Below are positions 2,873 to 62,764 of a stretch of DNA of 64,000 nucleotides, piece by piece (position 1 is the first letter of the stretch; every line of letters starts with the position of its first letter). Below the pieces are notes generated by a model. That model was not told where the DNA came from and did no database searches. It saw nothing but the letters and a program-made list of their open reading frames with translations. The stretch is from Acidobacteriota bacterium (GTDB lineage Bacteria > Acidobacteriota > Vicinamibacteria > Vicinamibacterales > Fen-181): positions 2,283 to 66,282 of the forward strand of contig JADGOB010000006.1 in the NCBI GenBank assembly GCA_017883185.1. Direction: 5' to 3'. The translations under genes were made by a program, and so were the position numbers.

Positions 2873-2935
2873 CCCCTGACCCCTGACCCCTAACTCCTAA
2901 CCCCCGATCCCCGATCCCTGCCCCCTGATCCCTAT
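2873..2935. repeat. heptanucleotide tandem array, 9 in-phase units (CCCCTGA family)
   Basis: Direct read: cccctga cccctga cccctaa ctcctaa cccccga tccccga tccctgc cccctga tccctat. It fills the junction between the upstream gene's stop (2932-2934) and the GT9 start (2864). Confidence 0.95.
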
Positions 2936-5442
2936 TTCACCGCCACCCTCTGCACCATCACGCCGAGCGTGCGGTGGTCATCGACACCCAACACAGCCTT
3001 GGGCGACCACGGCGAGGACGCGATGCGGAGGAGCGCCGGCTCTTCCCGGGCGGCAGCGGCGGCCGCGATGTCCGCGGGGATGGCGAAGGAATAGGGCTTG
3101 AACCCGCTATCGACGGTGGCTTCACCGATGAGGCGGTTGTCCAGATAGCACGTGATCGTGGCGGGACCTGCCGAAGCCGGCCGTCCGCCGTTGTCCATCC
3201 AGATCGCCAGGCTCGACGCGCGGTCGGTCAGGCCCAGGATCGTCACGTACGACGAATCGGTCGTCCAGCGAAACGAGCGACCGTTCATCCACTCCTTGGC
3301 GTTGAACCGAACGACGTACAGGTCGTCGTTCGTGCCGACGTCGATGTCGAACGGACGTGTCTCGCTCGCGGGATCGACGAACTTGTAGATGCTGAAGTCG
3401 AATTCCTTCTGGCGAGGGCCGCGTGGATAGCCGTCCCACACCGCCTCGTACTCGGGCACCTGGAACCGCTCGGTGGCCACGGGCACGACCGCGATCGCGC
3501 GCGACAGGAGGTCGGTGCCGCCGCTGCCGACGAAGTAGACGTTCTGGTAGCGGCTGCGGGCCCAGTCGAGGAACCCGCGGAACCGCTGGCGGTCGGGCCT
3601 GGGCGTGCTCAGCACGAGGACGTTGCGATTGAAGATGTAGGCCAGCGGCAAGGCGACGACGTGCAGATCGGACGACCGTCGAGATTCGACCACGACCAGG
3701 TCGCGCGGGCCGAAGTGATTCGAGAGAGCCTCGACGCGCGACCACAGCCCCTGGTACTCGACATGCCGAAAGACCGGCTGGTCCGCCCGGATGAGCAGCG
3801 CGCCGACGATCGTCACGAACACGAGCGGCGGAACCCACGCTGCCACGCGAGCCAGCGTCCCGCCCTTCGGTGTCGGCGTCTCGCCGGTCCCGTCCGTTTT
3901 CCGTGACCACACGCCGTAGAACGCGCCTGCAGCCAGCAGCAGGAACGCCGACGGCAGGATCACCGGCACGAATCGACGGGTCATCCAAAAGTGCTCGGGC
4001 ACGATCTGAATCTTGTAGAAGACGAAGAAGCCGTACACCACCGTGACGAGCAGCAGCGCCGGGTCGCGCCAGAACCGCCTCCAGGCTAGCAGGACGAAGC
4101 CGGCGACGGCGGCGATCAGACCCGCCCACGGGAAGTACCACGTGAACGTCCGGAGCGACAGCGCATCGTGCGGCGCCAGCCGACCGGCAGGAACGCGGAA
4201 GAACCAGGCGTAGATGACGGCACCGACGACGACGACGCCGAGGGCCGGAGGCGACCACGTGGAGATCACCCGCTCGAGCCGCTGGTTGCGGGAGAGGAGC
4301 AGGAGCGCGACCGCGGCCAGCACGCCGATGCCGAGAAACGTCAGGTGGATCGGACGCAGGTTCTCGAAGAACACCGCGTAGCGCCCGAAGCCTGGCCGCA
4401 TGATCGTCGAGATATAGACGCCGACGGCGACCAACGCCGCCACCATCGGGATGACAAACCAGGCGCGCGGCCACCGGCGCCGGAACAGCAGGAACAGCAC
4501 CGCGAGGCCGACGCCCGCCCACGCCAGGACGGCGTCGAAACGCAGGAACACCAGCAGTCCGAGAACCACGCCGGCCACAGGCGCAAAGAACCGGTCGTCG
4601 TCCACGTGCGACCGCGCGAAGGCGAGCAATCCTGCGAACAACAGCGCCTGCAGTCCGATCTCCGAGTTTGGATACCGGCCGAACCAGAGTTCGACGACGC
4701 AGAGCGCCAAAAGTGCCGAGGCGCAGAACGCCGGGATCCGCCCGAGCAGGCGGGCGCCCGCAAAATAGACGCCGAGCAACCCGAAGATGGCCCACGCGCC
4801 GATCATGCGCAGGCCGCCGCTCAGACCATCGAGCCCGTAACCGATCGCGACCCACGCCGGGTAGAGGTGCGGGAACTGGGCGACCACCGTGCCCTTGAGC
4901 GGATCGACCAGGAAGAAACCCATGAAGCGGAGGCTGTAGTACCAGCGATCGTGATACGGCGGGAAGAACAGGTCGCGGTGGACGGGCTGAACGGCTGCGA
5001 CCAGCGAGTCGCGGATCACCAGTGAGCCGCGCTGCGCGAGCGCGATCCCCTCGTTGATGTAGACGCCGGGGTCCCTGCCGCCGATGACGAATTCGGCGAC
5101 CGGGAAGAACAGGGCCATGCCGAGCGCGACGAGCGCAACCGGGAAAAGAGCCGTGACCCCGGGCCGTTGCGCCGTTCCGCGGTAGAGCAGGTGGCCGCGC
5201 CAGGCAGCGAGGGCCGCAGCCGAAAGCAATCCGTTGGCGATCAGCAGTCGCGGGAAGGTATACCAGGAGGCCGCCGCCAGCGCGAGCACGACGATCGACG
5301 ACCAGGCGGCGCTGATGACGACCGCCCAGAAGACGCGCTCCTCGGCGGCCAGCTGTGCCCGGCGGTCGCGCTCGGCGACAGGTGCGCGGAACAGCAGCGC
5401 GCCCGGCACGAACGCGATCAGCAGAAGCTCAGGAAGCCACAT
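2932..5442 (-). CDS. GT-C fold membrane glycosyltransferase (ArnT / PMT_2-like) with a large C-terminal soluble domain
   Basis: ORF track 2932..5562, trimmed to ATG 5442 (MWLPELLLIAFVPGALLF...); the upstream extension is Arg-rich and overlaps the DegT gene. About 560 aa of multiple hydrophobic helices are followed by about 270 aa of soluble domain. It sits in an operon with polyprenyl-P GT2 and sugar-modifying enzymes. Confidence 0.7.
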   Translation of the reverse strand: MWLPELLLIAFVPGALLFRAPVAERDRRAQLAAEERVFWAVVISAAWSSIVVLALAAASWYTFPRLLIANGLLSAAALAAWRGHLLYRGTAQRPGVTALFPVALVALGMALFFPVAEFVIGGRDPGVYINEGIALAQRGSLVIRDSLVAAVQPVHRDLFFPPYHDRWYYSLRFMGFFLVDPLKGTVVAQFPHLYPAWVAIGYGLDGLSGGLRMIGAWAIFGLLGVYFAGARLLGRIPAFCASALLALCVVELWFGRYPNSEIGLQALLFAGLLAFARSHVDDDRFFAPVAGVVLGLLVFLRFDAVLAWAGVGLAVLFLLFRRRWPRAWFVIPMVAALVAVGVYISTIMRPGFGRYAVFFENLRPIHLTFLGIGVLAAVALLLLSRNQRLERVISTWSPPALGVVVVGAVIYAWFFRVPAGRLAPHDALSLRTFTWYFPWAGLIAAVAGFVLLAWRRFWRDPALLLVTVVYGFFVFYKIQIVPEHFWMTRRFVPVILPSAFLLLAAGAFYGVWSRKTDGTGETPTPKGGTLARVAAWVPPLVFVTIVGALLIRADQPVFRHVEYQGLWSRVEALSNHFGPRDLVVVESRRSSDLHVVALPLAYIFNRNVLVLSTPRPDRQRFRGFLDWARSRYQNVYFVGSGGTDLLSRAIAVVPVATERFQVPEYEAVWDGYPRGPRQKEFDFSIYKFVDPASETRPFDIDVGTNDDLYVVRFNAKEWMNGRSFRWTTDSSYVTILGLTDRASSLAIWMDNGGRPASAGPATITCYLDNRLIGEATVDSGFKPYSFAIPADIAAAAAAREEPALLRIASSPWSPKAVLGVDDHRTLGVMVQRVAVK

Positions 5443-6520
5443 GAATCGCCCTTGCCACCTCGACCGCGTGCGTCTCCGGCATCGAGGGATACAGGGGCAG
5501 CGAGAAGATCTCCGCGCACACCTGGTCCGCGACGGGGCAGGCCGCGGGCGACTCGGAGGCAAGCGCAGGCTGGCGCGGGATCGGAACCGGGTAGTGGATC
5601 AGCGTCTCGATGCCGGCCTCATCGAGCTTCGCCCGAAGCGCCTCGCGCGCCGACGAGCGGACCGGGAACAGGTGGTAGACGTGGCCGGGATCCAGCTCCG
5701 GCGGGACGACGACGCCCGAGCCGATGAGCTCGCGCCGGTACACCGCCGCCAACGTCCGACGCTGTTCTGTCCACCGCGGCAGGAATTCGAGTCGCGCCAA
5801 CAGGATGGCCGCCTGGATCTCGTCGAGGCGGCTGTTGATGCCTGGCTCGCCGTGGTGGTAGCGGTCCGTTTGACCGCCGTTGCGAAGCCGCTTCAGCTTC
5901 GCCGCCAACTCCGCGTCGTTGGTGGTGATGGCCCCGCCGTCGCCAAGCGCGCCGAGGTTCTTCGTGGGGTAGAAGCTGTACGCCGCAGCCACGCTGAACG
6001 ACCCGACCGGTCGGCCGCGGAAGGTCGCCAGGTGCGCCTGGCAGCAGTCTTCGATCATCGCCAGGTCGTGGCGCGTGGCCATCGCGGCGAGTTCGTCCAT
6101 CGCGGCCGGCTGGCCGTAGAGGTGCACGGGAATGATCGCCGCCGTGTCGGGACCGATCGCCGCCTCGACGGCTGCCGGATCCAGCGTGAGGCGCTGCGGG
6201 TCGAGATCAACGAAGACCGGCCTGGCCCCGACGATCATCACGGCCAGCGCGGTATAGGCCGCCGACAGCGGCGTGGTGATGACCTCGTCGCCGCGGCCGA
6301 TGCCGAGCGCCTTCAGAATCAGCACCAGCGCGTCCGTGCCCGTGCCGACGCCGATGCCGAACTGCGCGCCCGACGCGTGAGCGAAGGCCCGCTCGAAGCT
6401 CTCCACCTCGGGGCCGAGCACGAACCAGCCTCGATCGACCACGCGGCGGATGGCCGCATCCACCGCCGGGCCGTCCTCGCCCGGCTTCAGGCTCATGAAC
6501 GGAATGCGCGTCGCGGTCAT
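5429..6520 (-). CDS. DegT/DnrJ/EryC1/StrS-family PLP-dependent sugar aminotransferase
   Basis: ORF track, 363 aa. Family-typical FVLGPEVESFE and the PLP-lysine region SFYPTKNLGALGDGG. ATGA overlap with the upstream SDR gene. Confidence 0.9.
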   Translation of the reverse strand: MTATRIPFMSLKPGEDGPAVDAAIRRVVDRGWFVLGPEVESFERAFAHASGAQFGIGVGTGTDALVLILKALGIGRGDEVITTPLSAAYTALAVMIVGARPVFVDLDPQRLTLDPAAVEAAIGPDTAAIIPVHLYGQPAAMDELAAMATRHDLAMIEDCCQAHLATFRGRPVGSFSVAAAYSFYPTKNLGALGDGGAITTNDAELAAKLKRLRNGGQTDRYHHGEPGINSRLDEIQAAILLARLEFLPRWTEQRRTLAAVYRRELIGSGVVVPPELDPGHVYHLFPVRSSAREALRAKLDEAGIETLIHYPVPIPRQPALASESPAACPVADQVCAEIFSLPLYPSMPETHAVEVARAIHVAS

Positions 6521-8307: not shown

Positions 8308-9600
8308 TCACTTGGAGGGCAAGCCGGCCGCGATGGCGTTTCGCGCGTCGGGGCCTTTTCTCGCGTTCCGGTACGCCCGTTCGAACGCTTCCGCCACGCG
8401 AGTCCAGCTGTGCTCCCGGAGCACATCTTCGCGCGCCCGCGCCCCCAGGCGCGCGCGCGTGTCCGGCGAACGGAGCAGCCGATCGATCGTCCCGGCCAGC
8501 CCGTCCACGTCGCGCTCGGCCACGAGCGCCGCGTTCACGTCGTCGTGCGCGACGGCCGCAATTCCGCCGGCCGTTGTCGCCACCAGCGCCGTGCCCGACG
8601 CGAGCGCCTCCATCACGACGTTGGGCAGCCCGTCCACGTTCCCGGAATCGTCTCGGATCGAGGGGACGACCGCGAGGTCGGCCGCGGCAAGGTAGTCGGC
8701 CACTTCTCCCTGCGCCAGGACACCCGGGAAGAACAGGCGGTCGGCCACCCCTTGGCCGGCGCCGCGGGCGCGCAGTTCACCGTCGAGATCACCGTCGCCC
8801 CCGATCGCGAGACGCAGGCCAGGCCACCGGGGGGCCAGGCGGGCGACGGCGTCGATCAGATACTCGAACCCCTTCTTCCGGACGAAGCGCCCGGCCGTGA
8901 AGAGCAGGGGATCGTCTTCGCGTAAGCCGAGTGGCCCTCGGACCCGCGCTCGTGCCTCGGCGTCAGGACGAAAGCGATCGGCGTCCACGCCGTACGGAAC
9001 TGTTTCAGAGCGCTCGGCCGTCGCGCCAAGGGCAATCGCGCGCGACCGGAGATCCTCGCTGCAAGCGGTCATCCAGCCGGCGTGCTGAAATACCGCGCGC
9101 GCGACGCGCTTGGCGACCGGGTTCCGTTCCGCGAGGTAGACGTCGGACCCATGGAGGCTCACCACCATCGGGAGCCGGGGACACGCCGCGGCGGCGATGG
9201 CGCCGCCCGGGATCACCCAGTGGGCGTGGATGACGGTGGCGCCGAACACGCGGGCGATGTTCCGCGCCTTCAGCCAGCCGGCGGCGAGCGCGAGGGGAGC
9301 CACCGCGTAGGCGGACAGCCGAAGACTCACGTCGGCCCGCAGCGCTCCGGCGTACCCGAAAACACAGAGGCTGCGAGCGGGCGCGTACCGGAACGGATGG
9401 AAGCGCACCCCGTCCTCGACGTGCTCGCGCGCGAGTCGCGGGTGCCACGGGATCACCATGTGCACCTCGTGACCGCGTGCGGCCACGCCGCGCGCGATCG
9501 GCTCCATGAAGGTGCCGATCGTGTCACCCGGAAACCGCGGATAGGAGGTGGCCACCATGACCACGACCTCCCGCCCCTGTGCCTTCGACCGTTCGTCCAC
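8308..9600 (-). CDS. GT4 (GT-B, Glycos_transf_1) glycosyltransferase
   Basis: ORF track, 430 aa (GTG start; the internal ATG giving MVATSYPRF is an alternative). C-terminal EX7E-type region GLPNVVMEALASGTALVAT. Confidence 0.8.
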   Translation of the reverse strand: MDERSKAQGREVVVMVATSYPRFPGDTIGTFMEPIARGVAARGHEVHMVIPWHPRLAREHVEDGVRFHPFRYAPARSLCVFGYAGALRADVSLRLSAYAVAPLALAAGWLKARNIARVFGATVIHAHWVIPGGAIAAAACPRLPMVVSLHGSDVYLAERNPVAKRVARAVFQHAGWMTACSEDLRSRAIALGATAERSETVPYGVDADRFRPDAEARARVRGPLGLREDDPLLFTAGRFVRKKGFEYLIDAVARLAPRWPGLRLAIGGDGDLDGELRARGAGQGVADRLFFPGVLAQGEVADYLAAADLAVVPSIRDDSGNVDGLPNVVMEALASGTALVATTAGGIAAVAHDDVNAALVAERDVDGLAGTIDRLLRSPDTRARLGARAREDVLREHSWTRVAEAFERAYRNARKGPDARNAIAAGLPSK

Positions 9601-10324: not shown

Positions 10325-11685
10325 CGTCGTCCTGCGCTCCCCTCTCGATCGGTCAGCATCGCCGGCGCGCAGGCGGCCGCGTACACGATCAGCACGGGGT
10401 CGATCACCGGGATCCGAAAGCGTTCCTGGGGAAAGAACACGAGACACACCATCACGGAGGCGGCGGCCAGCAACCAGAGCGCCACGGGGGGCGTTGTGCA
10501 GCCTCGCGCCCGCCACGCGCCGACGACGGCGAATGGCAGCACGAGCAGGTACGACGCGACCGAGGCGACGACGAACCGCGTGGAGTGCAGCGTGTACGAC
10601 GGCCCGACAGGGACCATGGTGTAGAAGGCCTTTCGCGCGAGCAGGTCGATCCACCGGACCGGGTCGCTGCGAATGTCGTCGAGCGCAGCCCTGTAGAAGA
10701 TTCCCTCGAGAGCCTCCGGCGTGGCGTTGCCGGCCGCGCGTTCGATTTCGAGGGCCGCGCGCTTCATCTCGAGGTTCGCCGCAAGGTCGCCTTCGCCACG
10801 CGCCAGCCGGTTGTTGCCCGTCCAGAATGTCACGCCGCCTTCCGAGGCGACCAGCACGAACCGGCCGTAGACCGCGTGGTTCCTGGCGGTCCAGGGAAAG
10901 ACGACGAGCATCGCGCCGGCGAGCACCGCCGCGAGCCACCATCCGCGGCGGCGAACGAGCCCCCAGGCCGCGACGAGCGCCAGGAACAACAGGATGGCCG
11001 GGCGCGCCAGCGCGGCGAGGCCGGTCAGCAGCCCGCCGGCCAGCGCAAGCCCGTACGACCGAACGGCGGTCGTCGGCGTCATCGCGCGGTCGATCACGAG
11101 CGCGGCCAGCAAGGCGAGCACCGCGTAGAGACTCTCGCTCAGCGCGTAGCTGCCGATCCAGACCAGCGGGGGGTAAACCGCCGCCAGGAACGCGGCCGCG
11201 ACCCCGGCGACGGCCGGGTGACGGCCTGCCAACTGCCGGCCGGCGACCGCCGCAGCACCTGGCCCCGCGACTCGCGTCGCCCACCACCCGACGAGCCAGA
11301 TGAGGGCGCAGCCGAGCAGCGCCTGCACGACCTTCACCTCGGTCGGCACCGACGCGGGCAGGCGATCCCCGCGAATCGCGCTCCCCGGAACCGCCACGGA
11401 GATACCCGCGAGCCACAGCGGGTAGAGCGGCGCCCGCCCGACGTGCCGCCCCTCAACCCTCCCCGATTCCGGCGACGCGTACGAGAACCCGCGGCCGTGG
11501 GCCAGGTTGTGAGCCAGCAGCAGGTACTCCTGTTCATCGAGCGTGAGGGGCTTGTCCACCCAATACGCCAGGCCGAAGACCAGGCGCAGGACGAAGCCGA
11601 GGAGCACGGCCGCCGCGAGCCACCAGCCAGTGCGGTTCGAGCCCGGCGGCGCCGTCGTCGGTCCGGCTCCTGGCGCCCGCATCAT
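10321..11685 (-). CDS. GT-C fold membrane glycosyltransferase (PMT_2 / GT39-GT83-like)
   Basis: ORF track, 454 aa, polytopic hydrophobic protein (WWLAAAVLLGFVLRLVFGLAYW..., DEQEYLLLAHNLAHGRGF). It lies directly upstream of and is coupled to the Ppm1-like GT2. Confidence 0.7.
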   Translation of the reverse strand: MMRAPGAGPTTAPPGSNRTGWWLAAAVLLGFVLRLVFGLAYWVDKPLTLDEQEYLLLAHNLAHGRGFSYASPESGRVEGRHVGRAPLYPLWLAGISVAVPGSAIRGDRLPASVPTEVKVVQALLGCALIWLVGWWATRVAGPGAAAVAGRQLAGRHPAVAGVAAAFLAAVYPPLVWIGSYALSESLYAVLALLAALVIDRAMTPTTAVRSYGLALAGGLLTGLAALARPAILLFLALVAAWGLVRRRGWWLAAVLAGAMLVVFPWTARNHAVYGRFVLVASEGGVTFWTGNNRLARGEGDLAANLEMKRAALEIERAAGNATPEALEGIFYRAALDDIRSDPVRWIDLLARKAFYTMVPVGPSYTLHSTRFVVASVASYLLVLPFAVVGAWRARGCTTPPVALWLLAAASVMVCLVFFPQERFRIPVIDPVLIVYAAACAPAMLTDREGSAGRR

Positions 11686-15926: not shown

Positions 15927-15951
15927 AGTGGTCCAAAGTGGAGCGAGGTGG
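15927..15951 (+). promoter_or_regulatory. three direct GTGG boxes at exact 10-nt spacing (candidate MraZ operator)
   Basis: gAGTGGt (15928), aAGTGGa (15938), aGGTGGg (15948). They lie immediately downstream of the -10 box and upstream of mraZ. Confidence 0.55.
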
Positions 15952-15961
15952 GAGAGTAAGC

Positions 15962-16429
15962 ATGTTGCGCGGCAGTTTCACGGCGAAAATCGACGAAAAG
16001 AGCCGCCTGAAGATTCCCCGCGACTTCCTCAAGTCGATCGAGGAGAAATTCGGCCGCGAGTTCTTCGTGACCAGCCTCGATGGCATCTCTGCCCACCTCT
16101 ACCCGATGCCCGTCTGGACTGAGATCGAACGGCAACTTGGCGCGCAGGGGCTGGTCCGGGATCCCGAAGTGGATCGCTTCTTCAAACATACCAGCTTTTA
16201 TGGCCAGGTGGCCGAGATCGACAACCAGGGCCGCCTGCTGATCCACCCTCGGCTCCGCGAGAGAGCGAGCATGGCCGGCGACGTGGACGTGGTCGGCAAC
16301 TTCGACCACCTCGAGGTCTGGAACCTGGAGCGGCTCAAGGCGGATCTGGCGGCCGCGCCGTTCACCGACAACGACCGGCGCGTCGTGGCGGGCCTGCTGC
16401 GGCAGACTCAGAAAATCGAGACCCCGTAA
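15962..16429 (+). CDS. mraZ: transcriptional regulator MraZ
   Basis: Track ORF 15938..16429, trimmed to ATG 15962 (MLRGSFTAKIDEKSRLKIPRDF...). Duplicated SpoVT/AbrB-like halves, GGAGAG RBS upstream, first gene of the dcw cluster. Confidence 0.9.
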   Translation: MLRGSFTAKIDEKSRLKIPRDFLKSIEEKFGREFFVTSLDGISAHLYPMPVWTEIERQLGAQGLVRDPEVDRFFKHTSFYGQVAEIDNQGRLLIHPRLRERASMAGDVDVVGNFDHLEVWNLERLKADLAAAPFTDNDRRVVAGLLRQTQKIETP

Positions 16430-16448
16430 CGGGCGGCAAGGACGGCCA

Positions 16449-17342
16449 GTGACCATGCCCGAGCACGTTCCGGTGATGAGAGCCGAGGTTCTGCACGCTC
16501 TCGATCCGCAGCGCGGCGGGCTCTTCGTGGATTGCACGCTCGGCCTTGGAGGCCACGCTGCGGCGGTGCTGGAGGCGGGGGCGACACGGCTGATCGGGAT
16601 CGACAGGGACCTCGAGGCGCTGTCGATTGCGCGCGAGCGCCTGGGGCGATGGGCCGATCGGGTGGAGTTCGTGCACGCGGATTACAAGGACCTCGGCGAG
16701 GTGCTCGACGCGCGCGGGGTGCAGTGCGCGGACGGCATCGTCGCCGATCTTGGCGTCTCCTCGCTGCAGTTCGACGGCGAGGGGCGCGGGTTCAGTTTCC
16801 AGAGGGACGAACCGCTCGACATGCGGATGGACCGGTCGGCCGGAATGACGGCCGCTGATCTGATCGCGGAGCTCGAGGAGCACGAACTCGCCGACCTGGT
16901 CTACGCGTTCGGCGAGGAGCGCTACTCGCGGAGGATTGCGCGCGCGGTCGTGGAAGCACGCCGCGAGGGTCCGGTCGCCACGACGGGGCAGCTCGCGGCC
17001 ATCGTGCGTCGGGCGGTGCCACGGAAGGGCTACAGCCCGATTCACCCTGCGACGCGCACGTTCCAGGCGCTGCGAATCCGCGTGAACGGCGAGCTCGACG
17101 GGCTCGATCGATTCGTAGACCACGCGTGCCGGCGGCTGGCGCCGGGCGGGCGCCTGGTCGTGATCGCGTTTCACTCGCTCGAGGACCGGATCGTCAAGCA
17201 CACGCTGCGGCAGCTCGCGGCCGACGAGACGCGGTCACTCCGGCTGCTGGCCCGCAAGGCGGGCCAGCCCACCGACGAGGAAGTGGCCATCAACCCGAGG
17301 GCCCGGAGCGCAAAGCTCAGGGCCGTCGAGCGAGTGGCTTGA
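16449..17342 (+). CDS. rsmH: 16S rRNA (cytosine1402-N4)-methyltransferase RsmH
   Basis: ORF track, 297 aa. HVPVM...FVDCTLGLGGHA...SLEDRIVK motifs. Start is GTG 16449 or ATG 16455. Confidence 0.92.
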   Translation: MTMPEHVPVMRAEVLHALDPQRGGLFVDCTLGLGGHAAAVLEAGATRLIGIDRDLEALSIARERLGRWADRVEFVHADYKDLGEVLDARGVQCADGIVADLGVSSLQFDGEGRGFSFQRDEPLDMRMDRSAGMTAADLIAELEEHELADLVYAFGEERYSRRIARAVVEARREGPVATTGQLAAIVRRAVPRKGYSPIHPATRTFQALRIRVNGELDGLDRFVDHACRRLAPGGRLVVIAFHSLEDRIVKHTLRQLAADETRSLRLLARKAGQPTDEEVAINPRARSAKLRAVERVA

Positions 17343-17370
17343 GACACGTTTTACGGGAGAGGACCGCGAC

Positions 17371-17772
17371 ATGCAGGGCAGGGTCAACACCCCCACCGCC
17401 TTCGAGGTGAGCCCGGCGCTACCCCGCCAGCAGGTCAACCTCGAGGTGGACCAGGCGCGACAGCGCGAGTTTCGGCGCTGGCTGCTGGTCGGGCTCGTGA
17501 TCATTGTGGCCGCGCTGTTCGACGGGACGCAGCGATATGTCCCGTCCTCGCTCGGGTACCAGCTGGAGCAAGTGCAGCAACAACACGCCCAGGAGGACGC
17601 GATCGCCCGCGCGCTGCGGCTCGATATTGCGATGCTGCGGGCGCTGCCACGCATTGAGGGGCTAGCCACGAACCTTCTGCACATGACTGCTCCCGGGCGC
17701 GGCAATACCATCGTGATCGAGCGAGTTGTTCCGCCCGAGCAACCACCCTCGTCAGTCGTCGCGGCGCGATAG
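17371..17772 (+). CDS. ftsL: cell division protein FtsL-like (single-pass membrane, coiled coil)
   Basis: ORF track, 133 aa. One TM helix (WLLVGLVIIVAALF) followed by a heptad-like region. Canonical position between rsmH and ftsI. Confidence 0.7.
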   Translation: MQGRVNTPTAFEVSPALPRQQVNLEVDQARQREFRRWLLVGLVIIVAALFDGTQRYVPSSLGYQLEQVQQQHAQEDAIARALRLDIAMLRALPRIEGLATNLLHMTAPGRGNTIVIERVVPPEQPPSSVVAAR

Positions 17773-17780
17773 GAGCGATC

Positions 17781-19808
17781 ATGGCTGAGCAACCCGATCC
17801 ACGCAACTGGCGGCTTACCGTGGGCCCCCGCCTGGTCGTGGTCGTCGTCGTGTTCGCGGTCTGTCTGCTTGCCGTGTTCGTCCGCCTTGTCAATCTCCAG
17901 ATCTACCAGCACGACGAACTCCAGGCGAGGAGCGAGCGCCAGCGGACGAGTCTGCTGGAGGAGCCCGCGCAGCGGGGCGACATCGTGGACCGTCACGGCA
18001 GGGTGCTCGCCTCCAGCGTCGAGGTCGACACGGTGGTCGCCGTGCCGAGCAAGCTAGTGAACAAGGAGCAGGTGGTCGCGAGTTTGTGCGACGCGCTCGG
18101 CGACTGCGACGACGCCGAGCGTGTGGCCATGACGAAGCGCCTCAGCCGGAAGAAGTCGTTCGCCAACGTGCGTCACCATGTGAAACCCGAGCAGGCGCGC
18201 CGGGTGGAAGCGCTCGGGATTGACGGCGTCTACTTCGTGAAGGAGCCGCGCCGCTACTATCCCAACCAGGAGCTGGCTGCGGCCGTGCTCGGCTACGTCG
18301 GGATCGAGAACAAGGGCCTGGCCGGGCTCGAGGACACCTACGACTCGAAGCTCCGCGGACGTCCGGGCCTCATGCGGCTGCAACACGACGGCCGCAAGAC
18401 CGGTCGAAAGTCCTTCAGTCGCGTCGGCGATCCGCCCGTGCCCGGGGCCACCATCGAGCTCACGATCGACGCGAACCTGCAGTACATCGCCGAACGGGAA
18501 CTGCGGGCGGGCGTCGAGGAGAACCGGGCGATCGGCGGCAGCGTGGTCATGATGGATTCGACGACCGGCGAGATCTTCGCCCTCGCGAGCGAGCCGTCGT
18601 TCAACGCGAACGACTACGGGCACGTGCCCGCCGAGCATCGGCGCAATCGCGCTGTCCAGGACATCTACGAGCCGGGATCAACCTTCAAGCTCGTCACGGC
18701 ATCGGCCGCGCTCGAAGAGAAGGTGATGAGCCCGACCGACCTGGTCGAGACCGGCGGCGGGTCGATCGCGATTGGGTCCAGGATCATCAAAGAAGCACAG
18801 GGGCACGCGTACGGGACGCTCTCGTTCACCGACGTGATCGTCAAATCGAGCAACGTCGGTGCGATCAAGATCGGGTTCCGCCTTGGGGCGGAACGCCTCG
18901 GTCGCTACGTCGAACGCTTCGGGTTCGGCACGCGCCTGTCGCCCGACTTCCCGGGGGAGAACGCCGGCATCGTGTGGCGGCCGTCGCAGTGGACCGACGG
19001 CGCGCTGGCTTCGGTCTCGATGGGCTACCAGATCGGCGTGACGCCGCTGCAGATGGCGGCCGCCGCGAGCGTCGTGGCCAACGGCGGCGAACTGGTGCAG
19101 CCGCGGGTGGTGCGAGCGGTGATCGACGGCAACCGGCGCGCGGTCGTCCCGCGCAAGGTGATTCGTCGGGTGACCTCGGCGGAAACCGCGGCGGAGCTGA
19201 CCTCCATCATGGAAGCCGTGGTCGATCGCGGGACCGGGAAGAATGGCAAGCTTCTGGACTTCACCGTCGCGGGCAAGACCGGCACCGCGAACAAGGTCCA
19301 GGATGGGCAATACCTGAAGAAGGACTTCAACGTGTCGTTCGTCGGCTTCGTCCCGTCGCGCAAGCCGGCGCTGACGATCCTCGTCCTCATCGACACCCCA
19401 CGCGGCCCGAACAGACCCTTCGGCGGCACCGTGGCGGCGCCGATCTTCCGGCGGATCGCCGACGCCGCGCTCCGTTACATGGCCGTCGCGCCGACCATCA
19501 ACCCGATGCCTCCCGTCCTCGTGGCGCGTCACGACAGCGGCAACGGAATCAAGGTGTCCGGTCCGGTCCTGCCGTTGACGATCATCCCGGCCGTCAGCCC
19601 GTCGTCGACCGGACAGATCGTGCTGCCGGAGTTGCGGGGGCTGAGCGGGCGCGAGGCGCTCCGGGTGCTGGCCCGGCTGGGTATCACGCCGCGCGTGACG
19701 GGCGACGGCGTGGTGACTGAACAGGATCCGCTGCCTGGCGCGGCGCTCGAGGCCGGCGGGTCGTGCCGCCTGGCGCTCGGCCGCCACGCCCCGGGGCTGC
19801 GTCCATGA
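17781..19808 (+). CDS. ftsI: peptidoglycan D,D-transpeptidase FtsI (class B PBP) with a C-terminal PASTA domain
   Basis: ORF track, 675 aa. SxxK (GSTFK), SxN (KSSNVG) and KTG (GKTGTA) motifs. C-terminal LPELRGLSGREALRVLARLGITPRVTGDGVV is PASTA-like. Confidence 0.92.
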   Translation: MAEQPDPRNWRLTVGPRLVVVVVVFAVCLLAVFVRLVNLQIYQHDELQARSERQRTSLLEEPAQRGDIVDRHGRVLASSVEVDTVVAVPSKLVNKEQVVASLCDALGDCDDAERVAMTKRLSRKKSFANVRHHVKPEQARRVEALGIDGVYFVKEPRRYYPNQELAAAVLGYVGIENKGLAGLEDTYDSKLRGRPGLMRLQHDGRKTGRKSFSRVGDPPVPGATIELTIDANLQYIAERELRAGVEENRAIGGSVVMMDSTTGEIFALASEPSFNANDYGHVPAEHRRNRAVQDIYEPGSTFKLVTASAALEEKVMSPTDLVETGGGSIAIGSRIIKEAQGHAYGTLSFTDVIVKSSNVGAIKIGFRLGAERLGRYVERFGFGTRLSPDFPGENAGIVWRPSQWTDGALASVSMGYQIGVTPLQMAAAASVVANGGELVQPRVVRAVIDGNRRAVVPRKVIRRVTSAETAAELTSIMEAVVDRGTGKNGKLLDFTVAGKTGTANKVQDGQYLKKDFNVSFVGFVPSRKPALTILVLIDTPRGPNRPFGGTVAAPIFRRIADAALRYMAVAPTINPMPPVLVARHDSGNGIKVSGPVLPLTIIPAVSPSSTGQIVLPELRGLSGREALRVLARLGITPRVTGDGVVTEQDPLPGAALEAGGSCRLALGRHAPGLRP

Positions 19809-21355: not shown

Positions 21356-21364
21356 CGAGCACCG

Positions 21365-22768: not shown

Positions 22769-22782
22769 CGCCGGAAGGCGTC

Positions 22783-25504: not shown

Positions 25505-25507
25505 CGC

Positions 25508-45639: not shown

Positions 45640-45668
45640 TCGCCAGATGTCCCCCGTTCACCCTCCGG

Positions 45669-45717
45669 ATTCTGACTTCTGAATTCTGTCTTCTGACTTC
45701 CGACTTCTCCCTCCTGC
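45669..45717. repeat. heptanucleotide array, 7 units (ATTCTGA/CTTCTGA family)
   Basis: attctga cttctga attctgt cttctga cttccga cttctcc ctcctgc, followed directly by TATAAT (45718-45723), 11 nt before the lepA ATG. Confidence 0.95.
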
Positions 45718-45734: not shown

Positions 45735-47540
45735 ATGGACCCGCGTTACATTCGCAACTTCTCCGTCATCGCGCACATCGACCACGGCAAGTCCACGCTC
45801 GCGGACCGCTTCCTCGAGCTGACGGGCGCCGTGCAGTTGCGGGACATGGAGGCCCAGTTGCTCGACAGCATGGACCTCGAGAAGGAACGCGGTATCACGA
45901 TCAAGGCGCACCCCGTCCGGCTCACCTACCTGGCCGATGACGGCAACAAGTACGTGCTGAACCTGATCGACACGCCCGGCCACGTGGATTTCTCGTACGA
46001 GGTAACTCGCTCGCTGGCCGCGTGCGAGGGCGCGGTGCTGCTGGTTGACGCCGCGCAGGGCGTCGAGGCCCAGACGCTGGCCAACGCCTACCTGGCCGTT
46101 GACGACGGCCTCGAGATCGTGCCGGTCATCAACAAGATCGATCTCCCGGGCGCCCAGCCCGAGGAAACGCGACGCCAGATCGAGGACATCATCGGGCTCG
46201 ACGGAAGCCAGGCCATCCTGGCGAGCGCCAAGGTGGGCACCGGCATCAGGGAGGTCCTCGAGGCGATCGTGCACCGCCTGCCGCCCCCTGCCGGAACCGC
46301 CGCCGCCCCGCTGAAGGCGTTGGTCTTCGATTCCTGGTACGACGCCTACCGGGGCGTCGTCATCGTCATCCGCGTGATCGACGGCGTCATCCGCAAGGGC
46401 ATGCAGGTCAAGTTCATGGCCGCCGGCCAGGAATACGAGATCGAGGAAGTCGGCGCGTTCACGCCGAAGGCCACGCCCCTCGAGGAACTCGCCGTGGGCG
46501 AGGTCGGGTTCATTACTGCCGGCATCAAGAAGGTGGCGGACGCCAAGCTCGGCGACACCATCACCGAGACCGCCCGGCCGACCTCCGAGCCGTTTCCGGG
46601 TTTCAAGGAACTCAAGCCGATGGTCTTCGCCGGGCTCTACCCGGTTGAGGGACACGAGTACGCCGAACTGCGCGACGCGCTCGAGAAGCTGCGGCTGAAC
46701 GACGCATCGTTCTTCTACGAGCCGGAAACCTCGGTCGCCCTCGGCTTCGGGTTCCGCTGCGGCTTTCTCGGCCTGCTGCACATGGAGATCGTGCAGGAGC
46801 GCCTCGAGCGCGAGTTCAACCAGGACCTGGTCACCACCGCGCCGAGCGTGTTGTACCGGGTGACGACGACCGACGGCGAAGTCCGCGAGGTGGACAGCCC
46901 CGCGAAGCTGCCGGACGCGGGCCGCATCCAGAAGCTCGAGGAGCCGGTCATCACGGCGATGATCCTGACGCCGGCCGAGCACGTCGGCGGGATTCTCACG
47001 CTGTGCCAGGACAAGCGCGGGGTCCAGAAGACGCTCGAGTACCTCGCCAGCAACCGCGTGCTCATCACCTACGAGCTGCCGTTCAACGAGGTCGTGCTCG
47101 ATTTCTACGACCGGCTGAAGACGATCTCGCGCGGCTATGCGTCGCTCGACTATCACGTCACGGGGTACTGGGAGTCGCCGCTGGTGAAACTCGATATCCT
47201 GGTGAACGGCGACCCGGTGGACGCCCTGTCCGTCATCGTCCACAGGGACTCTTCGTACCAGCGCGGTCGCGCGCTGGCGAGCCGGATGCGCAGCCTGATC
47301 CCGAGGCAGATGTTCGAGGTGGCAATCCAGGCGGCGATCGGCGGCCGGATTATCGCCCGCGAGTCGGTGAAGGCGCTGCGGAAGAACGTGCTGGCCAAGT
47401 GCTACGGCGGCGACATCACGCGCAAGCGGAAGCTGCTCGAGAAACAAAAGGAAGGCAAGCGCCGGATGAAGCGCGTGGGGAAGGTCGAGATTCCCCAGGA
47501 GGCGTTTCTCGCCGTGCTCAAGATGGATGGGGACGAGTAG
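45735..47540 (+). CDS. lepA: elongation factor 4 (LepA)
   Basis: ORF track, 601 aa. [19 protein letters not shown]1 motif, [13 protein letters not shown]. LepA C-terminal domain. Confidence 0.97.
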
Positions 47541-50839: not shown

Positions 50840-51544
50840 TCAGGGCTGGCGCGTTCCGAAGATCGCGGTGCCGACCCGGACCAGGGTCGCGCCTTCCTCG
50901 ATCGCCACCTCGAAGTCGTGGCTCATGCCCATGGAGAGTTCGCGAAGCATCGCGGCCGGCACGCCCTCGTCGCTCAGGCGGTCGCGGAGTTCGCGTAACT
51001 GCCTGAAATAGGGTCGAACCTCCTCCGGGTCCTCGAGGTAGGGCGGCAGCAGCATCAGCCCGGCCAGCCGGACGGCACGGCTCCGCGCGGCCCGCTCCAC
51101 GACCGCGCGCACCAGATCCAGCGTCGCCCCGTGCTTGGTGGGTTCGGCCGCCAGGTCAACTTGGACGAGGACCTCCGGCGACGTGCCTGCGTCGGCGGCC
51201 GCGCGGTCCACCGCCTCGAGCAGATCGAGGCGGTCGATCGAGTGGACGCACGCGAACGAGACCGCGGCTTTCCTGGCCTTGTTCGACTGCAGGTGCCCGA
51301 TCAGGTGCCAGCGCACGTCGAGGTCCTGCGCCGACGCGATCTTCTGGAGCGCTTCCTGCACCCGGTTCTCGCCAAAGTCCCGTTGCCCCGCGGCCGCCGC
51401 GGCCCGCACGTGTTCGATCGGGTACGTCTTGGAGACGGCCACGAGGCGCACGTCGCCGGCCCCACGGCCGGCGCGCAGTGCGGCACGCGCCATCCGGTCG
51501 CGCACGTCGGCAAGGCGAAGGGCGAGAGCGGCTTCGAGTGTCAC
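50840..51544 (-). CDS. yggS: YggS-family pyridoxal-phosphate homeostasis protein
   Basis: Track ORF 50840..51583, trimmed to GTG 51544 because the longer start would lie inside the upstream terminator hairpin. LVAVSKT PLP-lysine, HLIGHLQSNK, MGMSHDFEVAIEEGAT. Confidence 0.85.
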   Translation of the reverse strand: MTLEAALALRLADVRDRMARAALRAGRGAGDVRLVAVSKTYPIEHVRAAAAAGQRDFGENRVQEALQKIASAQDLDVRWHLIGHLQSNKARKAAVSFACVHSIDRLDLLEAVDRAAADAGTSPEVLVQVDLAAEPTKHGATLDLVRAVVERAARSRAVRLAGLMLLPPYLEDPEEVRPYFRQLRELRDRLSDEGVPAAMLRELSMGMSHDFEVAIEEGATLVRVGTAIFGTRQP

Positions 51545-51548
51545 GGGC

Positions 51549-51592
51549 AGAGAAAGGAAAAGGCCGCCGGTTGCGACCGACAACCGGCGGCC
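51549..51592 (-). terminator. intrinsic terminator downstream of the TPR gene
   Basis: Minus-strand read: GGCCGCCGGTTG-TCGGTCG-CAACCGGCGGCC (12-bp perfect stem, 51562-51592) followed by TTTTCCTTTCTCT. Confidence 0.75.
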
Positions 51593-51640
51593 TCGACACT
51601 GACCGGGATCCTGATGACTGACCAGTTGACCGTCATTCTC

Positions 51641-51668
51641 TGGCCCCTGGCCCCGCGTCCCAGATCCC
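51641..51668. repeat. heptanucleotide array, 4 units (TGGCCCC family)
   Basis: tggcccc tggcccc gcgtccc agatccc, immediately 3' of the TPR gene's stop (51672-51674). In the minus sense it reads GGGATCT GGGACGC GGGGCCA GGGGCCA. Confidence 0.9.
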
Positions 51669-55251: not shown

Positions 55252-55942
55252 GAGTGAATTGTACCCGCGATCGCGGGAACTTGCGACCGGGCGCGCTGCC
55301 CGACCGACAACGACAAAGCACACAGAGCACACAAAGGACGTCGGAAAGACCCCGGCCGACGCCGGCACCGTCGGAAGGGCCTCGCCCTCCGTGTCCTTGG
55401 TGATCTTGGGTACGCCAGTGAGTCCTTTTCATTCTCGCTGACTGAAAGGAGTCAGCCATGTGAATTGCTCGTTCAGCATGTAGCGGCGGTCCGGCACGTG
55501 GAGGCAACAAAGCGTGCGAAGCGGACCGGTTGGCCGTGGCCGCCGCGGCAACGGCCAGCCACGGAGAGGGTCCTCTCCCGACCGCGAAGACGCGAGCCCT
55601 AGCGCAAGCGAACCTGTTTCGGCCTCGTGACACTGCACTGGCGGCGGCCAATCTGCCGAAGATGCTGAAGCCTGCCACCGACGAGGAAGCAACGAGCATC
55701 CGCACTCGTCGGGCCGCTCGGGGTGAGAGGGGAGAGCGCGCGTCGACCGAATGAGAAGGGCGCTGGGAGACCCGGCGAGGGGTGCCGCCGCAGGGCGGGA
55801 CACCGGCACGTGGGAAACCATAACCACGCGGCGGCCTCGGCCGGGAGTCGGACCGGCTCGTAGTAGCGAGGAAGCGGGGTAACGCCCGTGGAGCGAAGGG
55901 GCCGGACTTCACACGCGTTTCTGTCGCAGAAGGAGGTGCCGA

Positions 55943-57289
55943 TTGAGCGACCGCCGCTCTCTGACGGACTGGGAAGCCGACGGCTTCACGCCGGAGGCGC
56001 ACCTGCCAGTGCGGGTCTCGCTGCTGCGCTGGAAACTGGGCCGCAAGGCCAAGCAGGAACCGGGGTTCCGATTCTACAACCTGTTCGGGCACGTGCTGCG
56101 GGCCGACGTGCTGACGGCGGCCAGTCAGCGCGTGCGAGCGAACAAGGGCGGGCCGGGCGTGGATGGCGTCACCTGGGCGACCATCGATGCTCAGCCGGGA
56201 GGGGAGACGGTGTGGCTGGAGGCCCTCGCGGAGGACCTGCGGCGGCACCGCTACCATCCCCAGCCGGTCCGTCGCGTCTACATTCCGAAGGCCGATGGCC
56301 GGCCGCGGCCGCTGGGGATTCCCACGGTCCGCGACCGGGTGGCGCAAGCCGCGGTCCTGCTGGTGATCGAGCCGATCTTCGAAGCGGACTTCGAGGCGTG
56401 CTCGTTTGGCTTCCGCCCGGGGCGGTCGGCCCACCAAGCGCTGGACACGCTGCAGGTGGCCATCAAGGCCGGACGCACCGAGGTCTACGACGCGGACCTG
56501 TCGAGCTACTTCGATACGATCGACCACGGGCGGCTGATGGCGCAGCTCCACCGGCGGATCACCGACAGCGGCGTGCTGCGGCTGATCCGTCTGTGGCTGC
56601 GGTGTCCGATTGCCGAAGAGGACGGCGACAGCGGGACCCGCCTGACGCGTCCCACGCGCGGGACGCCCCAGGGTGGGGTCATCTCGCCGCTGCTGGCCAA
56701 CGTCTATCTGCACGACTTCGACCGCGCCTTCCACGGTCCCGACGGCCCGGCCCAGTTTGCGAACGCGCGGCTGGTGCGGTACGCCGATGACTTCGTGGTC
56801 GTGGCGCGGTGGATGGGGTCGCGCGTCGTCGGTTGGGTCGAGACGATGCTCGAACAGCGGCTGCAGCTCACCATGAATCGGACCAAGACACGGGTAGTAC
56901 GATTGGGAGACCCGGGCACGTCCGTGGATTTTCTGGGGTTCACGCTGCGCTTCCTGCGTGACCGCCACGGACGGCCGCATCGCTATCTCGCGGTCGGCCC
57001 GTCGGCGCGCGCCAGTCAACGCCTGCGCGAGAAGGTGCGGGCGCAGATTGGGTGCGGCTTCAACGGGTCGCTCGCGGCGGCCATCGCGGCCGTCAACGCG
57101 TTGCTGCGCGCCTGGAAGCCCTACTTCGCGTACGGCTATCCCCAGGTCGCGTTTCGGGACCTCAATCATTTCACCCGCGAACGGTTCGGACGCTTCTTGC
57201 GTCATCGGAGTCAACGACGGGCCCGGCCCTTTCGGCGGGGCGAGACGCTCTACGCGGGGTTGCACCGCTATGGCTTTCGTCCGCTGTGA
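55943..57289 (+). CDS. group II intron reverse transcriptase/maturase (no endonuclease domain evident)
   Basis: ORF track, 448 aa. TTG start 7 nt after GGAGG. RT blocks: GVDGVTW, RRVYIPKADGRPRPLGIPTVRDRVAQ, GTPQGGVISPLLANVYL, and VRYADDFVVV (YADD). Maturase X region LLRAWKPYFAYG. Confidence 0.93.
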   Translation: MSDRRSLTDWEADGFTPEAHLPVRVSLLRWKLGRKAKQEPGFRFYNLFGHVLRADVLTAASQRVRANKGGPGVDGVTWATIDAQPGGETVWLEALAEDLRRHRYHPQPVRRVYIPKADGRPRPLGIPTVRDRVAQAAVLLVIEPIFEADFEACSFGFRPGRSAHQALDTLQVAIKAGRTEVYDADLSSYFDTIDHGRLMAQLHRRITDSGVLRLIRLWLRCPIAEEDGDSGTRLTRPTRGTPQGGVISPLLANVYLHDFDRAFHGPDGPAQFANARLVRYADDFVVVARWMGSRVVGWVETMLEQRLQLTMNRTKTRVVRLGDPGTSVDFLGFTLRFLRDRHGRPHRYLAVGPSARASQRLREKVRAQIGCGFNGSLAAAIAAVNALLRAWKPYFAYGYPQVAFRDLNHFTRERFGRFLRHRSQRRARPFRRGETLYAGLHRYGFRPL

Positions 57290-57340
57290 CCGGTCCGTCC
57301 ACAGCTCTCTGCGTCTGCCCTGTGGCGAGAGTGTGTCGGT

Positions 57341-57412
57341 GAGCCGGATGCGGGAAATCTGCATGTCCGGTTCGAAGAGGGGGAGGGGAATCAACCCCCC
57401 TCCCTACTCGAC
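57341..57412 (+). ncRNA. group II intron domains V and VI (catalytic hairpin and branch-site helix)
   Basis: DV: GAGCCGGAUGCGG-GAAA-UCUGCAU(GU)CCGGUUC, with the AGC triad and a 2-nt bulge. DVI: GGGAGGGG-loop-CCCCUCCC with bulged A57406 and a terminal AC. Confidence 0.85.
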
Positions 57413-58627: not shown

Positions 58628-58633
58628 CTGGCC

Positions 58634-58661
58634 GGCTTGCGACTGGCGGCTTGCGACCTGC
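58634..58661. repeat. 14-nt (2 x 7) direct repeat x2 (GGCTTGC GACYKGC)
   Basis: ggcttgc gactggc ggcttgc gacctgc, starting 7 nt after the rlmI stop. Confidence 0.9.
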
Positions 58662-58726
58662 GGCCATGCTGCGCCGTGCCACCCAGGACCGGCGGATCTC
58701 GCCCGTCCTACCGCGCGCTCACGGCC

Positions 58727-58754
58727 GTCAGCCGTCAGCCGCAAGCCGTCAGGC
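58727..58754. repeat. heptanucleotide array, 4 units (GTCAGCC family)
   Basis: gtcagcc gtcagcc gcaagcc gtcaggc, abutting the S9 peptidase stop (58757-58759). CGCAAGCCG (58740-58748) is complementary to CGGCTTGCG in the 58634 array. Confidence 0.9.
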
Positions 58755-58756
58755 GA

Positions 58757-62651: not shown

Positions 62652-62697
62652 GGCAAGCCTCCTGCGCGCGGACTGTATCAGGGGACGGCCCGGGGCT

Positions 62698-62764
62698 CAA
62701 GGCGGCAGGTGGAAAGGCGGGAAGGCGGGAAGGCGGCAGGCGGAGGGCGGACGGCGGAAAGGCT
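62698..62764. repeat. G-rich 7-8-nt tandem array (RRGGCGG units)
   Basis: caaggcgg caggtgg aaaggcgg gaaggcgg gaaggcgg caggcgg agggcgg acggcgg aaaggc, in the divergent spacer between the GH27 and blaI genes. Confidence 0.85.

Follow-up and report, generated by a model that had tools for sequence, protein, structure and literature searches.

Questions about the role of heptanucleotide repeats in bacteria, and about the reason for a period of 7, date back to the reports of short tandemly repeated repetitive (STRR) sequences around 1990 and to a survey of 2007. STRR sequences are found in heterocystous cyanobacteria, in which a few fixed units are reused genome-wide. This study deals with tandem arrays of 7-nt units at the gene junctions of a 64,000-nt stretch of DNA, hereafter the window, from an Acidobacteriota bacterium of the Vicinamibacterales (assembly GCA_017883185.1, contig JADGOB010000006.1, positions 2,283 to 66,282), and with the hairpins formed by pairs of such arrays, above all a conserved structured RNA between murD and ftsW. 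An earlier note on this DNA had likened the arrays to STRR sequences, which is fair insofar as both are heptamer tandem arrays in non-coding DNA; however, the units of the window are mostly derived from the junction at which they lie, fixed reused units were not encountered, and the host is an acidobacterium. A second point of reference is given by the repetitive extragenic palindromic (REP) sequences and bacterial interspersed mosaic elements (BIME) of enterobacteria, which are stable stem-loops between cistrons and can stabilise the upstream mRNA or terminate transcription. REP sequences form one conserved dispersed family, whereas the hairpins of the window share a period and not a sequence.

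The arrays belong to a known class of heptanucleotide repeats, here in a soil acidobacterium. The survey of Mrazek et al. (2007), as represented in PMC4679880 and PMC4692102, found that, in most prokaryotic genomes, heptanucleotides outnumber all other long simple repeats, counted GC-rich Burkholderia, Xanthomonas and Actinobacteria among the ten richest genomes, and proposed slippage tied to the polymerase footprint as the cause. To the extent covered by these accounts, heptamer repeats were thus already known in GC-rich genomes, contrary to the novelty claimed for them earlier. The class of long simple sequence repeats (LSSR; Mrazek, Guo and Shah, 2007) comprises units of 5-11 nt, and its 7-nt arrays are described in the same accounts as longer than chance, concentrated in intergenic DNA and variable in unit sequence; the arrays of the window likewise show tandem 7-nt copies in beyond-chance number, confinement to non-coding DNA and copy change by whole units. 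Unlike the LSSR of those accounts, many arrays here are inverted pairs spanning stop codon to start codon.

Three further systems resemble part of the picture. In Xanthomonas, Rehm et al. (2015; PMC4692102) described arrays of GGGNATC heptamers that are intergenic, lie near the ends of open reading frames (ORFs), partly as inverted pairs, and stay at the same junctions while varying in length and sequence; quadruplexes of GGGNATC were demonstrated in vitro, and no function was found. The GGGNATC/GGGGA(C/T)T unit of Xanthomonas and Nostoc is shared with arrays 1 and 2 of the window (Table 1), and array 2 holds six tandem copies of it; runs of at least four such units were not present outside arrays 1 and 2. 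Upstream of ORFs in Xanthomonas, the G-rich sequence mostly lies on the non-coding strand, whereas here it is on the sense strand, and most arrays of the window have units unable to form quadruplexes. The TAACTGA repeats of marine Beggiatoaceae, for which MacGregor (2015; PMC4679880) suggested a post-transcriptional role, are also heptamers a few nucleotides upstream of start codons, essential genes included, but they consist of one fixed unit genome-wide and pairs are almost absent (one indirect repeat), in contrast to the many units and frequent pairs found here. The closest experimental model for the paired arrays is (ATCTTTC)n upstream of hmw1A in Haemophilus influenzae, a transcribed heptamer array of variable copy number which forms one arm of a long hairpin in the 5' untranslated region; RNase III cuts this hairpin, and the cutting is needed for expression and for change in repeat number (PMC12721329). 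That system is one phase-variable adhesin locus of a pathogen with a G-rich non-repeat sequence as the other arm, whereas here both arms are arrays and the sites are junctions of housekeeping operons.

No report of heptamer repeats in Acidobacteriota or Vicinamibacterales was found in the literature searched, beyond which three features go: heptad hairpins from stop to start, persistence of arrays at orthologous junctions of the division and cell wall (dcw) cluster, and the conserved murD-ftsW RNA. We think it more likely than not that the arrays are heptanucleotide simple-sequence repeats of the LSSR class (STRR in cyanobacteria) with the origin, context and function set out below.

Excess of period 7 in non-coding DNA

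The window, with a GC content of 68%, was scanned in 21-nt segments for at least 15 self-matches at lag k over 7.85 kb of non-coding DNA, in comparison with shuffled sequences. The scan revealed 10 regions at period 7 against a shuffle mean of 0.20, and 9 at period 14 against 0.08, while periods 4-6 and 8-13 gave 0-1 regions each (shuffle means 0.06-0.20). With a stricter threshold (at least 16 matches, dinucleotide-preserving shuffles), period 7 gave five regions against 0.02. In the 57 kb of coding DNA of the window there was no region at period 7. Because part of the DNA scanned as non-coding is truly coding, for example the PgeF-like gene at 33.6-34.5 kb, the enrichment estimate is conservative. 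The 10 regions are located at 2864-2934, 22772-22830, 24289-24320, 34509-34555, 34590-34618, 45664-45717, 51640-51668, 58633-58666, 58717-58756 and 62723-62762, and a scan of the whole window also picked up 24190-24221. Tandem Repeats Finder (TRF) detected period-7/14 arrays at eight sites, with 3.7-8.7 copies of period 7 (2873-2933, 22784-22823, 34512-34549, 34598-34623, 45670-45708, 58633-58664, 58724-58752 and 62699-62759), and short period-7 matches at 24192-24206, 27851-27865 and 51640-51654.

These analyses recovered nearly the same list of arrays as the earlier note, whose central observation is therefore real. The GGCAGGC run of two copies at 27851-27864, which had been included as a weaker case, is at chance level, since comparable two-copy matches occur inside genes (e.g., 19856-19872 and 41262-41276). 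The remaining arrays are identical base for base in JGI, ENA and Logan assemblies that were made independently from many samples, which excludes an assembly artefact. Arrays are present at about one third of the approximately 25 junctions with a spacer of at least 40 nt. At least eight different heptamer units occur within the 64 kb, and the only recurring class is the G-rich GGGRWYN.

The G-rich arrays 1 and 2 each make up the whole stop-to-start spacer of a co-directional gene pair, with the G-rich strand as sense. Array 1 extends from the TAG stop of an 836-aa gene, which has no Pfam match, and ends about 8 nt short of the GTG start (2864) of a GT9 heptosyltransferase gene; its sense strand reads TAG-GGAT CAGGGGG CAGGGAT CGGGGAT CGGGGGT TAGGAGT TAGGGGT CAGGGGT CAGGGGA, with units that include GGGATC, GGGGATC and GGGGTCA. 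Array 2 starts 13 nt past the murF stop, and its last unit (AGGGATG) contains the murD ATG. The claim that arrays abut or overlap stop or start codons was borne out at these two arrays, at murD and at the 34.5-kb and 58.6-kb sites. A general rule by which the units would supply stop codons in all frames was rejected, as the sense units of arrays 1 and 2 are without a stop codon. The G-rich units would put a Shine-Dalgarno-like GGGGA or AGGGA about 7-10 nt before the start codon.

According to sequence motifs and ViennaRNA predictions with quadruplexes allowed, the G-rich arrays may form G-quadruplexes. Four short-loop motifs were counted on both strands of the window, three of them inside heptamer arrays and all three on the sense strand (22783-22807, 2909-2932 and 51644-51668). 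Together with the in vitro quadruplexes of GGGNATC arrays (PMC4692102), this is the basis for a reading in which (GGGG N3)n arrays exist because DNA or mRNA quadruplexes modulate transcription or translation. Such a reading fits at most 3-4 of the approximately 10 arrays, as ATTCTGA, GAGAATC, GCCGTCA and GGCTTGC units cannot form quadruplexes; it leaves the period of the non-G-rich arrays unexplained, and no in vivo role was found in Xanthomonas (PMC4692102). As a general account of the arrays it is doubtful, with a small chance of being correct.

Local origin and turnover of the units

Comparison with related metagenome loci (designated by L numbers) revealed where the units come from. The dcw cluster of the window has the order mraZ-rsmH-(ftsL)-ftsI-murE-murF-murD-ftsW-murC-ftsQ-ftsA-ftsZ, and the junction upstream of murD, compared in 76 loci, is either a 4-nt ATGA stop/start overlap with no array or a spacer consisting entirely of heptamers, with at least 15 of the 76 loci passing the array threshold. 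At this junction the heptamer unit corresponds to the start of the murD coding sequence: starts reading TTG-GGA-TTC-GAT are paired with ...GGGATTT GGGATTC and those reading TTG-GAA-TTC-GAT with (GGAATTA)n, so that TTGGGATTCGAT goes with GGGATTY arrays and TTGGAATTCGAT with GGAATTA arrays. The first unit often contains the upstream stop codon (TAGGGGC TAGGGGC ...). At lepA, the ATTCTGA unit recurs in the adjoining TATAATTCTGAG. The units are thus copied from the local junction sequence, and this is why they look locus-specific. The earlier description of the units as locus-specific holds for most of them, but GGGRWYN-type and GGGTTCN/GAACCCN units recur at orthologous junctions in distant relatives.

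Close relatives differ by whole units. Window positions 12826-34201 are matched by contigs L081 and L082 (99.7% identical) and L083 (95.7%); array 2 is the same in the first two, while in L083 it is 14 nt (two units) shorter and carries substitutions. In L085 and L086, in which MurD is, respectively, 76 and 74% identical, the murF-murD array is missing. In a near-identical strain (L177), array 1 is short by exactly one GGGGATC unit, a step of 7 nt. The comparison of orthologous junctions suggested by the earlier note therefore showed both unit turnover and copy-number change, and its proposal of a period-specific process rather than one dispersed repeat family is supported by units that differ by locus and match their own flanks and by length steps of whole units. 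With regard to phase-variation (contingency) repeats, in which copy number switches the expression of surface or virulence genes, copy-number polymorphism is present, but the genes flanking the arrays are mostly housekeeping genes (murD, lepA, RNase H).

In 72 GC-rich related loci (889 kb), 74 of the 95 period-7 arrays were located in the 9.6% of DNA that is non-coding, and 35 of the 95 are arms of the conserved murD-ftsW element. Among periods not divisible by 3, to which the comparison was confined, Acidobacteriota lepA loci showed 29 period-7 arrays against at most 5 for any other period, and murD loci 85 against at most 8, with 14 as the next period in both sets. LepA of the window (45735-47540) is 82-85% identical to its closest matches, which are from Vicinamibacterales/Acidobacteriota metagenome-assembled genomes, and arrays of different units lie just upstream of lepA in L003, L007, L009 and L030; for L001, L003 and L005, whose intergenic DNA is too diverged for alignment, the lepA-region junctions were scored only for presence or absence of an array. 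Most Proteobacteria and Firmicutes loci examined had no arrays. A Nitrospinota genome locus with 41% GC (L033) carries nine period-7 arrays in 15 kb (e.g., 8725-9252 and 11105-11185), including inverted GGGGCAA/CCCTGMC pairs, and arrays are also present in Nitrospira (L038) and in a deltaproteobacterial locus (L047). Heptamer arrays are tied neither to high GC nor to Acidobacteriota.

For the LSSR-class interpretation, the following course of events is proposed. An array would be born from sequence already present at a gene junction and would lengthen or shorten by replication slippage in 7-nt steps; mismatch repair is poor on loops of more than 3 nt (Huang and Mrazek, PMC4060949). As a 7-nt step breaks the reading frame, arrays would survive in non-coding spacers only, and as they lie inside operons they are probably transcribed. 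Two forms may be distinguished. In the first, single G-rich arrays (GGGGAUC type, sense) constitute the entire stop-to-start spacer. In the second, inverted array pairs would give long RNA hairpins at gene ends, of 25-30 bp in the window and 60-70 bp in relatives, often enclosing or extending a terminator hairpin. The hairpins are most likely intercistronic stem-loops serving transcription termination, 3'-end protection or as RNase III substrates, and arms that touch stop and start codons may couple translation of the downstream gene to the upstream gene. Template switching within the hairpins may be what keeps the arms complementary.

Paired arrays and the murD-ftsW RNA

Three pairs of the listed arrays are inverted repeats, i.e., the two arms of a hairpin (Table 1). 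In the related loci, 41 non-coding arrays do not belong to the conserved element, and 17 of these are accompanied by an inverted partner no more than 220 nt away. The 34.5-kb and 58.6-kb arrays of the window lie where two genes converge, and in both cases the two stop codons are overlapped or touched. At 34.5 kb, the left array overlaps the last 10 or so codons of the Cu-oxidase_4 (PgeF-like) gene together with its TGA stop (34540-34542); at 58.6 kb, the listed run of the right array (to 58754) ends 2 nt before the stop of the convergent gene.

On sequence comparison, the lepA array is the surviving right arm of a further inverted pair. Three contigs (L164, at 2797-2905; L166; L167) have 109 extra nt after the stop of the GT2 gene, at an insertion point corresponding to 45643/45644 of the window, and the short contig L170 begins inside this segment, which is absent from the window and from 6 of 10 contigs. 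This segment comprises AGAATTC x4, which is the lepA array in reverse complement, followed by an account of its second part, an intrinsic-terminator hairpin (GAGCCAGGAGGC...GCCTCCTGGCTC-TTTCGTTT). This presence/absence polymorphism and the inverted-repeat architecture at intergenic sites are what would be expected of mobile or dispersed palindromic elements, of the type of miniature inverted-repeat transposable elements or REP/BIME, inserted at gene junctions. However, no target-site duplication was found at the ends of the 109-nt indel, which show imperfect short similarity only (AGTCG vs AGCTG), the hairpins at different loci share no sequence, the units match local flanks, and a covariance model of the murD-ftsW hairpin (R1) matched once in the window and nowhere in 850 kb of other loci. 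Insertion of mobile elements is therefore extremely improbable, and the murD-ftsW hairpin in particular was rejected as a dispersed element, as its model found no paralogues.

Very large hairpins were observed at the murG-murC junction of relatives, where paired arrays of the GGGTTCN/GAACCCN type occur in all of a set of loci that share only 71-84% MurD identity. In L143, L135 and L102 these form near-perfect hairpins of 60-70 bp, with -96 to -106 kcal/mol and z between -9 and -10. In L093, L097, L102, L135 and L143, the first arm starts at -4 to +5 nt from the stop, and the second ends at -3 to +8 nt from the start. In a separate comparison of strands, the sense fold was more stable than the antisense fold in 5 of 5 hairpins tested. 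In the dcw cluster of the window (15938-30734), mraY is missing from its expected place between murF and murD, and murG from that between ftsW and murC; the murG-murC hairpin is missing as well. In L085 and L086, murF is also directly upstream of murD, and relatives at 60-65% MurD identity have the orders mraY-murD and ftsW-murG-[heptad hairpin]-murC.

A conserved hairpin lies between murD and ftsW. The runs listed earlier as free-standing arrays at 24194-24221 (GTGAGCC x4) and 24297-24317 (TGNTCAC x3) are, respectively, the 5' and 3' arms of this structured RNA, and the murD TGA stop (24202-24204) is inside the 5' arm. The arms keep the heptad pattern GTGAGCN GTGAGCA GTCRTCA GTCGG. The element was found downstream of murD in most of 80 metagenome loci (MurD 59-100% identical), and in an alignment of 67 distinct sequences (A1) the consensus hairpin has 50 pairs, with pairing in 96.6% of cells. 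Compensatory double changes were present at 28 pairs, against 16.4 +/- 1.9 in shuffles (none of 500 reached 28) and 11-15 with slid partners. Over about 12 bp of the stem, both sides have an invariant sequence, and the internal loops UGGGAA and CCCC are conserved. Model R1 scored 130 bits on the + strand and 39.5 on the - strand, the hairpin contains many sense-strand G-U pairs, and the antisense fold is 20 kcal/mol weaker, which together argue that the element acts as a sense-strand RNA. Judging by its covariation, the hairpin with its heptad arms is clearly under selection, and a cis-acting role on the ftsW/dcw mRNA, in processing, stability or protein binding, may be suggested. The RNA is apparently undescribed so far: it had no Rfam 15 match at gathering threshold, a scan of 24100-24420 at E <= 10 gave chance-level matches only, and the literature searched contained nothing on an ftsW RNA motif in Acidobacteria. 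The gathering-threshold scan of the whole window returned tRNA-Met and a group II intron domain, and nothing else. A hammerhead ribozyme was considered for the invariant CUGAUGA of the 3' arm, which is like the hammerhead core, and was rejected: all bases of the motif are paired, and none of the ribozyme models gave a match. In many relatives, additional heptamer arrays or hairpins separate the murD stop from the conserved RNA or follow closely behind this RNA, such as GGCTAAT.../...GCCATCA in L111, GTGCTAG x5 in L100 (11470-11520) and GGGAGTC x4 in L146; further cases are L108, L112, L096, L115 and L135.

Two broader alternatives may be considered. Under the first, the arrays are neutral debris, a by-product of 7-nt-biased slippage in DNA free to vary, from which hairpins and flush positions follow with nothing selected. 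Units that are locally derived and turn over, with the array gone at 74-76% MurD identity, many orthologous junctions with the ATGA overlap only, the functional unrelatedness of the array-flanking genes and the absence of an observed regulatory role in Xanthomonas (Rehm et al., PMC4692102) are all consistent with it. It accords poorly with the recurrence of arrays of related units at the same junction across 71-84% MurD identity, with the near-perfect arm complementarity kept over 60-70 bp and the greater stability of the sense fold in every case, and with the evident selection on the murD-ftsW hairpin; we give it a modest chance of being right. The second supposes a protein binding single strands (cold-shock domain, S1 or CsrA-like) that covers about 7 nt, occupies the transcribed arrays in register and controls translation. 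It would account for a constant period with varying sequence and for the many arrays directly 5' of start codons, and candidate proteins are discussed in PMC4679880, in which MacGregor proposed such binding for the TAACTGA repeats. The units, however, range from G-rich to pyrimidine-rich and are too diverse for one sequence-specific binder, and pairing with a partner, as in about 40% of the arrays, would prevent a protein from binding them as single strands, so that this explanation is very unlikely.

The interpretation as LSSR with intercistronic functions has its own difficulties. Slippage alone explains neither the preference for 7 over 5, 8, 10 or 11 nor the upkeep of arm complementarity; the functions suggested are argued from geometry and analogy, and flush positions at stop and start are trivial if the array is the whole spacer. 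The paired arrays at 34.5 kb are invariant among 10 conspecific contigs and those at 58.6 kb are identical in four others, which makes both pairs uninformative on slippage, and the 34.5-kb hairpin surpasses shuffles only narrowly. The sense strand of the lepA array is rich in pyrimidines, so that the Shine-Dalgarno and G-quadruplex readings cover a subset only. In addition, the codon-position GC heuristic makes gene starts in the loci approximate.

More speculatively, and with the chances rather against it, heptad-repeat hairpins may be a systematic intercistronic device in Acidobacteriota, perhaps also in Nitrospinota and Nitrospira, which couples or gates downstream translation, with the murD-ftsW RNA as an ancient fixed member and a cis-regulator of ftsW. 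If so, arms reaching from stop to start would juxtapose both codons and mask the ribosome-binding site, the downstream cell-wall or division gene would be translated in strict coupling with the upstream gene or under gating by RNase III, and the heptad register would let the stem change length by slippage with pairing kept. The lineage offers clean material in this respect: in the essential dcw operon whole spacers from stop to start consist of arrays, the two arms of the 60-70 bp hairpins derive from one heptad, junctions can be compared with and without an array, and natural +/-7-nt variants exist. Slippage, RNase III processing and translational coupling are thus directly testable. The murD-ftsW element adds a strongly covarying RNA, absent from Rfam, in front of a core cell-wall synthase gene. 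For annotation, heptamer arrays should not be confused with CRISPR-like or mobile repeats; they also break short-read assemblies.

Table 1. Heptamer arrays, hairpin arms and the structured RNA of the window.
Feature	Position	Strand	Copies or complementarity	Remarks
Array 1	2866-2935	-	about 9 units	TRF period 7, 8.7 copies
Array 2, GGGGATC/AGGGATC	22781-22824	+	x6	spacer from murF stop to murD start
murD-ftsW structured RNA	24187-24324	+		hairpin of ~130 nt
Hairpin arms, murD-ftsW	24192-24220 / 24291-24319		83% complementary	-95.7 kcal/mol, z = -10
GGCAGGC, ftsQ/ftsA gap	27851-27865	+	x2	2.1 copies (TRF); undetected in lag scans
GAGAATC/GAGGATT, left arm	34509-34555	+	x6	period 14
CCATTCT-type, right arm	34591-34627	+	x4	overlaps convergent RNase H stop (34611-34613)
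Hairpin arms, 34.5 kb	34516-34548 / 34591-34623		73% complementary	weak: z -0.9 on +, -2.1 on -
(A/C)TTCTGA	45664-45717	+	x7	between GT2 glycosyltransferase gene and lepA, just upstream of TATAAT box
GGGGCCA GGGGCCA (sense) with degenerate neighbours	51640-51668	-	3-4 units	short array
GGCTTGC/GACTGGC, left arm	58633-58666	+	x4	period 14; starts 7 nt past RlmI-like methyltransferase stop
GCCGTCA, right arm	58717-58756	+	x4	ends at stop of convergent S9 peptidase gene (58757)
Hairpin arms, 58.6 kb	58633-58658 / 58723-58748		81% complementary	z -3.7 on +, -3.1 on -
Degenerate 7-8-nt RRGGCGG	62698-62764	+	~8 units	TRF period 7, 8.3 copies

Other arrays and neighbouring features

The gene map was based on GC at the third codon position and checked by Pfam and by gene calls on other contigs. 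Besides the dcw cluster, it includes a polysaccharide gene cluster, genes for a PgeF-like protein, RNase H, RpoD, DnaG and MutS2, a GT2 glycosyltransferase gene followed by lepA and lepB, a group II intron, and genes for an RlmI-like methyltransferase, an S9 peptidase, an alpha-galactosidase and a BlaI-type repressor.

The short GGGGCCA array directly follows the stop of a TPR protein gene and precedes a YggS-like (Ala_racemase_N) gene. A perfect 13-bp stem with a 7-nt loop (AGGCCGCCGGTTG / CAACCGGCGGCCT, 51561-51593) was observed about 50 nt from this array, overlapping or just upstream of the 5' end of the YggS-like gene (50840-51583, -). The RRGGCGG array, with 76% matches and 7% indels in TRF, is located in the divergent promoter region between the alpha-galactosidase gene (-) and the BlaI/MecI-type repressor gene (+), and a search for an inverted partner of this array found none. 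Upstream of the repressor gene (62853-63227), positions 62800-62852 contain a TTGACA box and the palindrome TACTAA-TTTG-TTAGTA, which by its sequence resembles a putative BlaI-type operator. A second repressor gene of the same family is present at 36374-36757.

Repeats of other periods were also observed. A 20-nt unit, ACCGMCCCGTCCYCGTCAGC (sense GCTGACGAGGACGGGGCGGT), is repeated about nine times at 36875-37062, between the rpoD stop (37065, -) and the rpoD intrinsic terminator; its copy number varies among strains (3 in L192, about 10 in L185), and several metagenome contigs end inside it. A 13-nt unit, ACGGAAACCGTGG, occurs in 3.3 copies at 36078-36120, in a long non-coding stretch beside tRNA-Met (35896-35971). 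The group II intron extends from about 55300 to 57412, with a reverse transcriptase/maturase ORF at 55943-57289 (RVT_1 and GIIM) and the Rfam domain V/VI at 57339-57412. Contigs L171-L174, from other samples, begin within its 3' end, indicating that the intron breaks assemblies.

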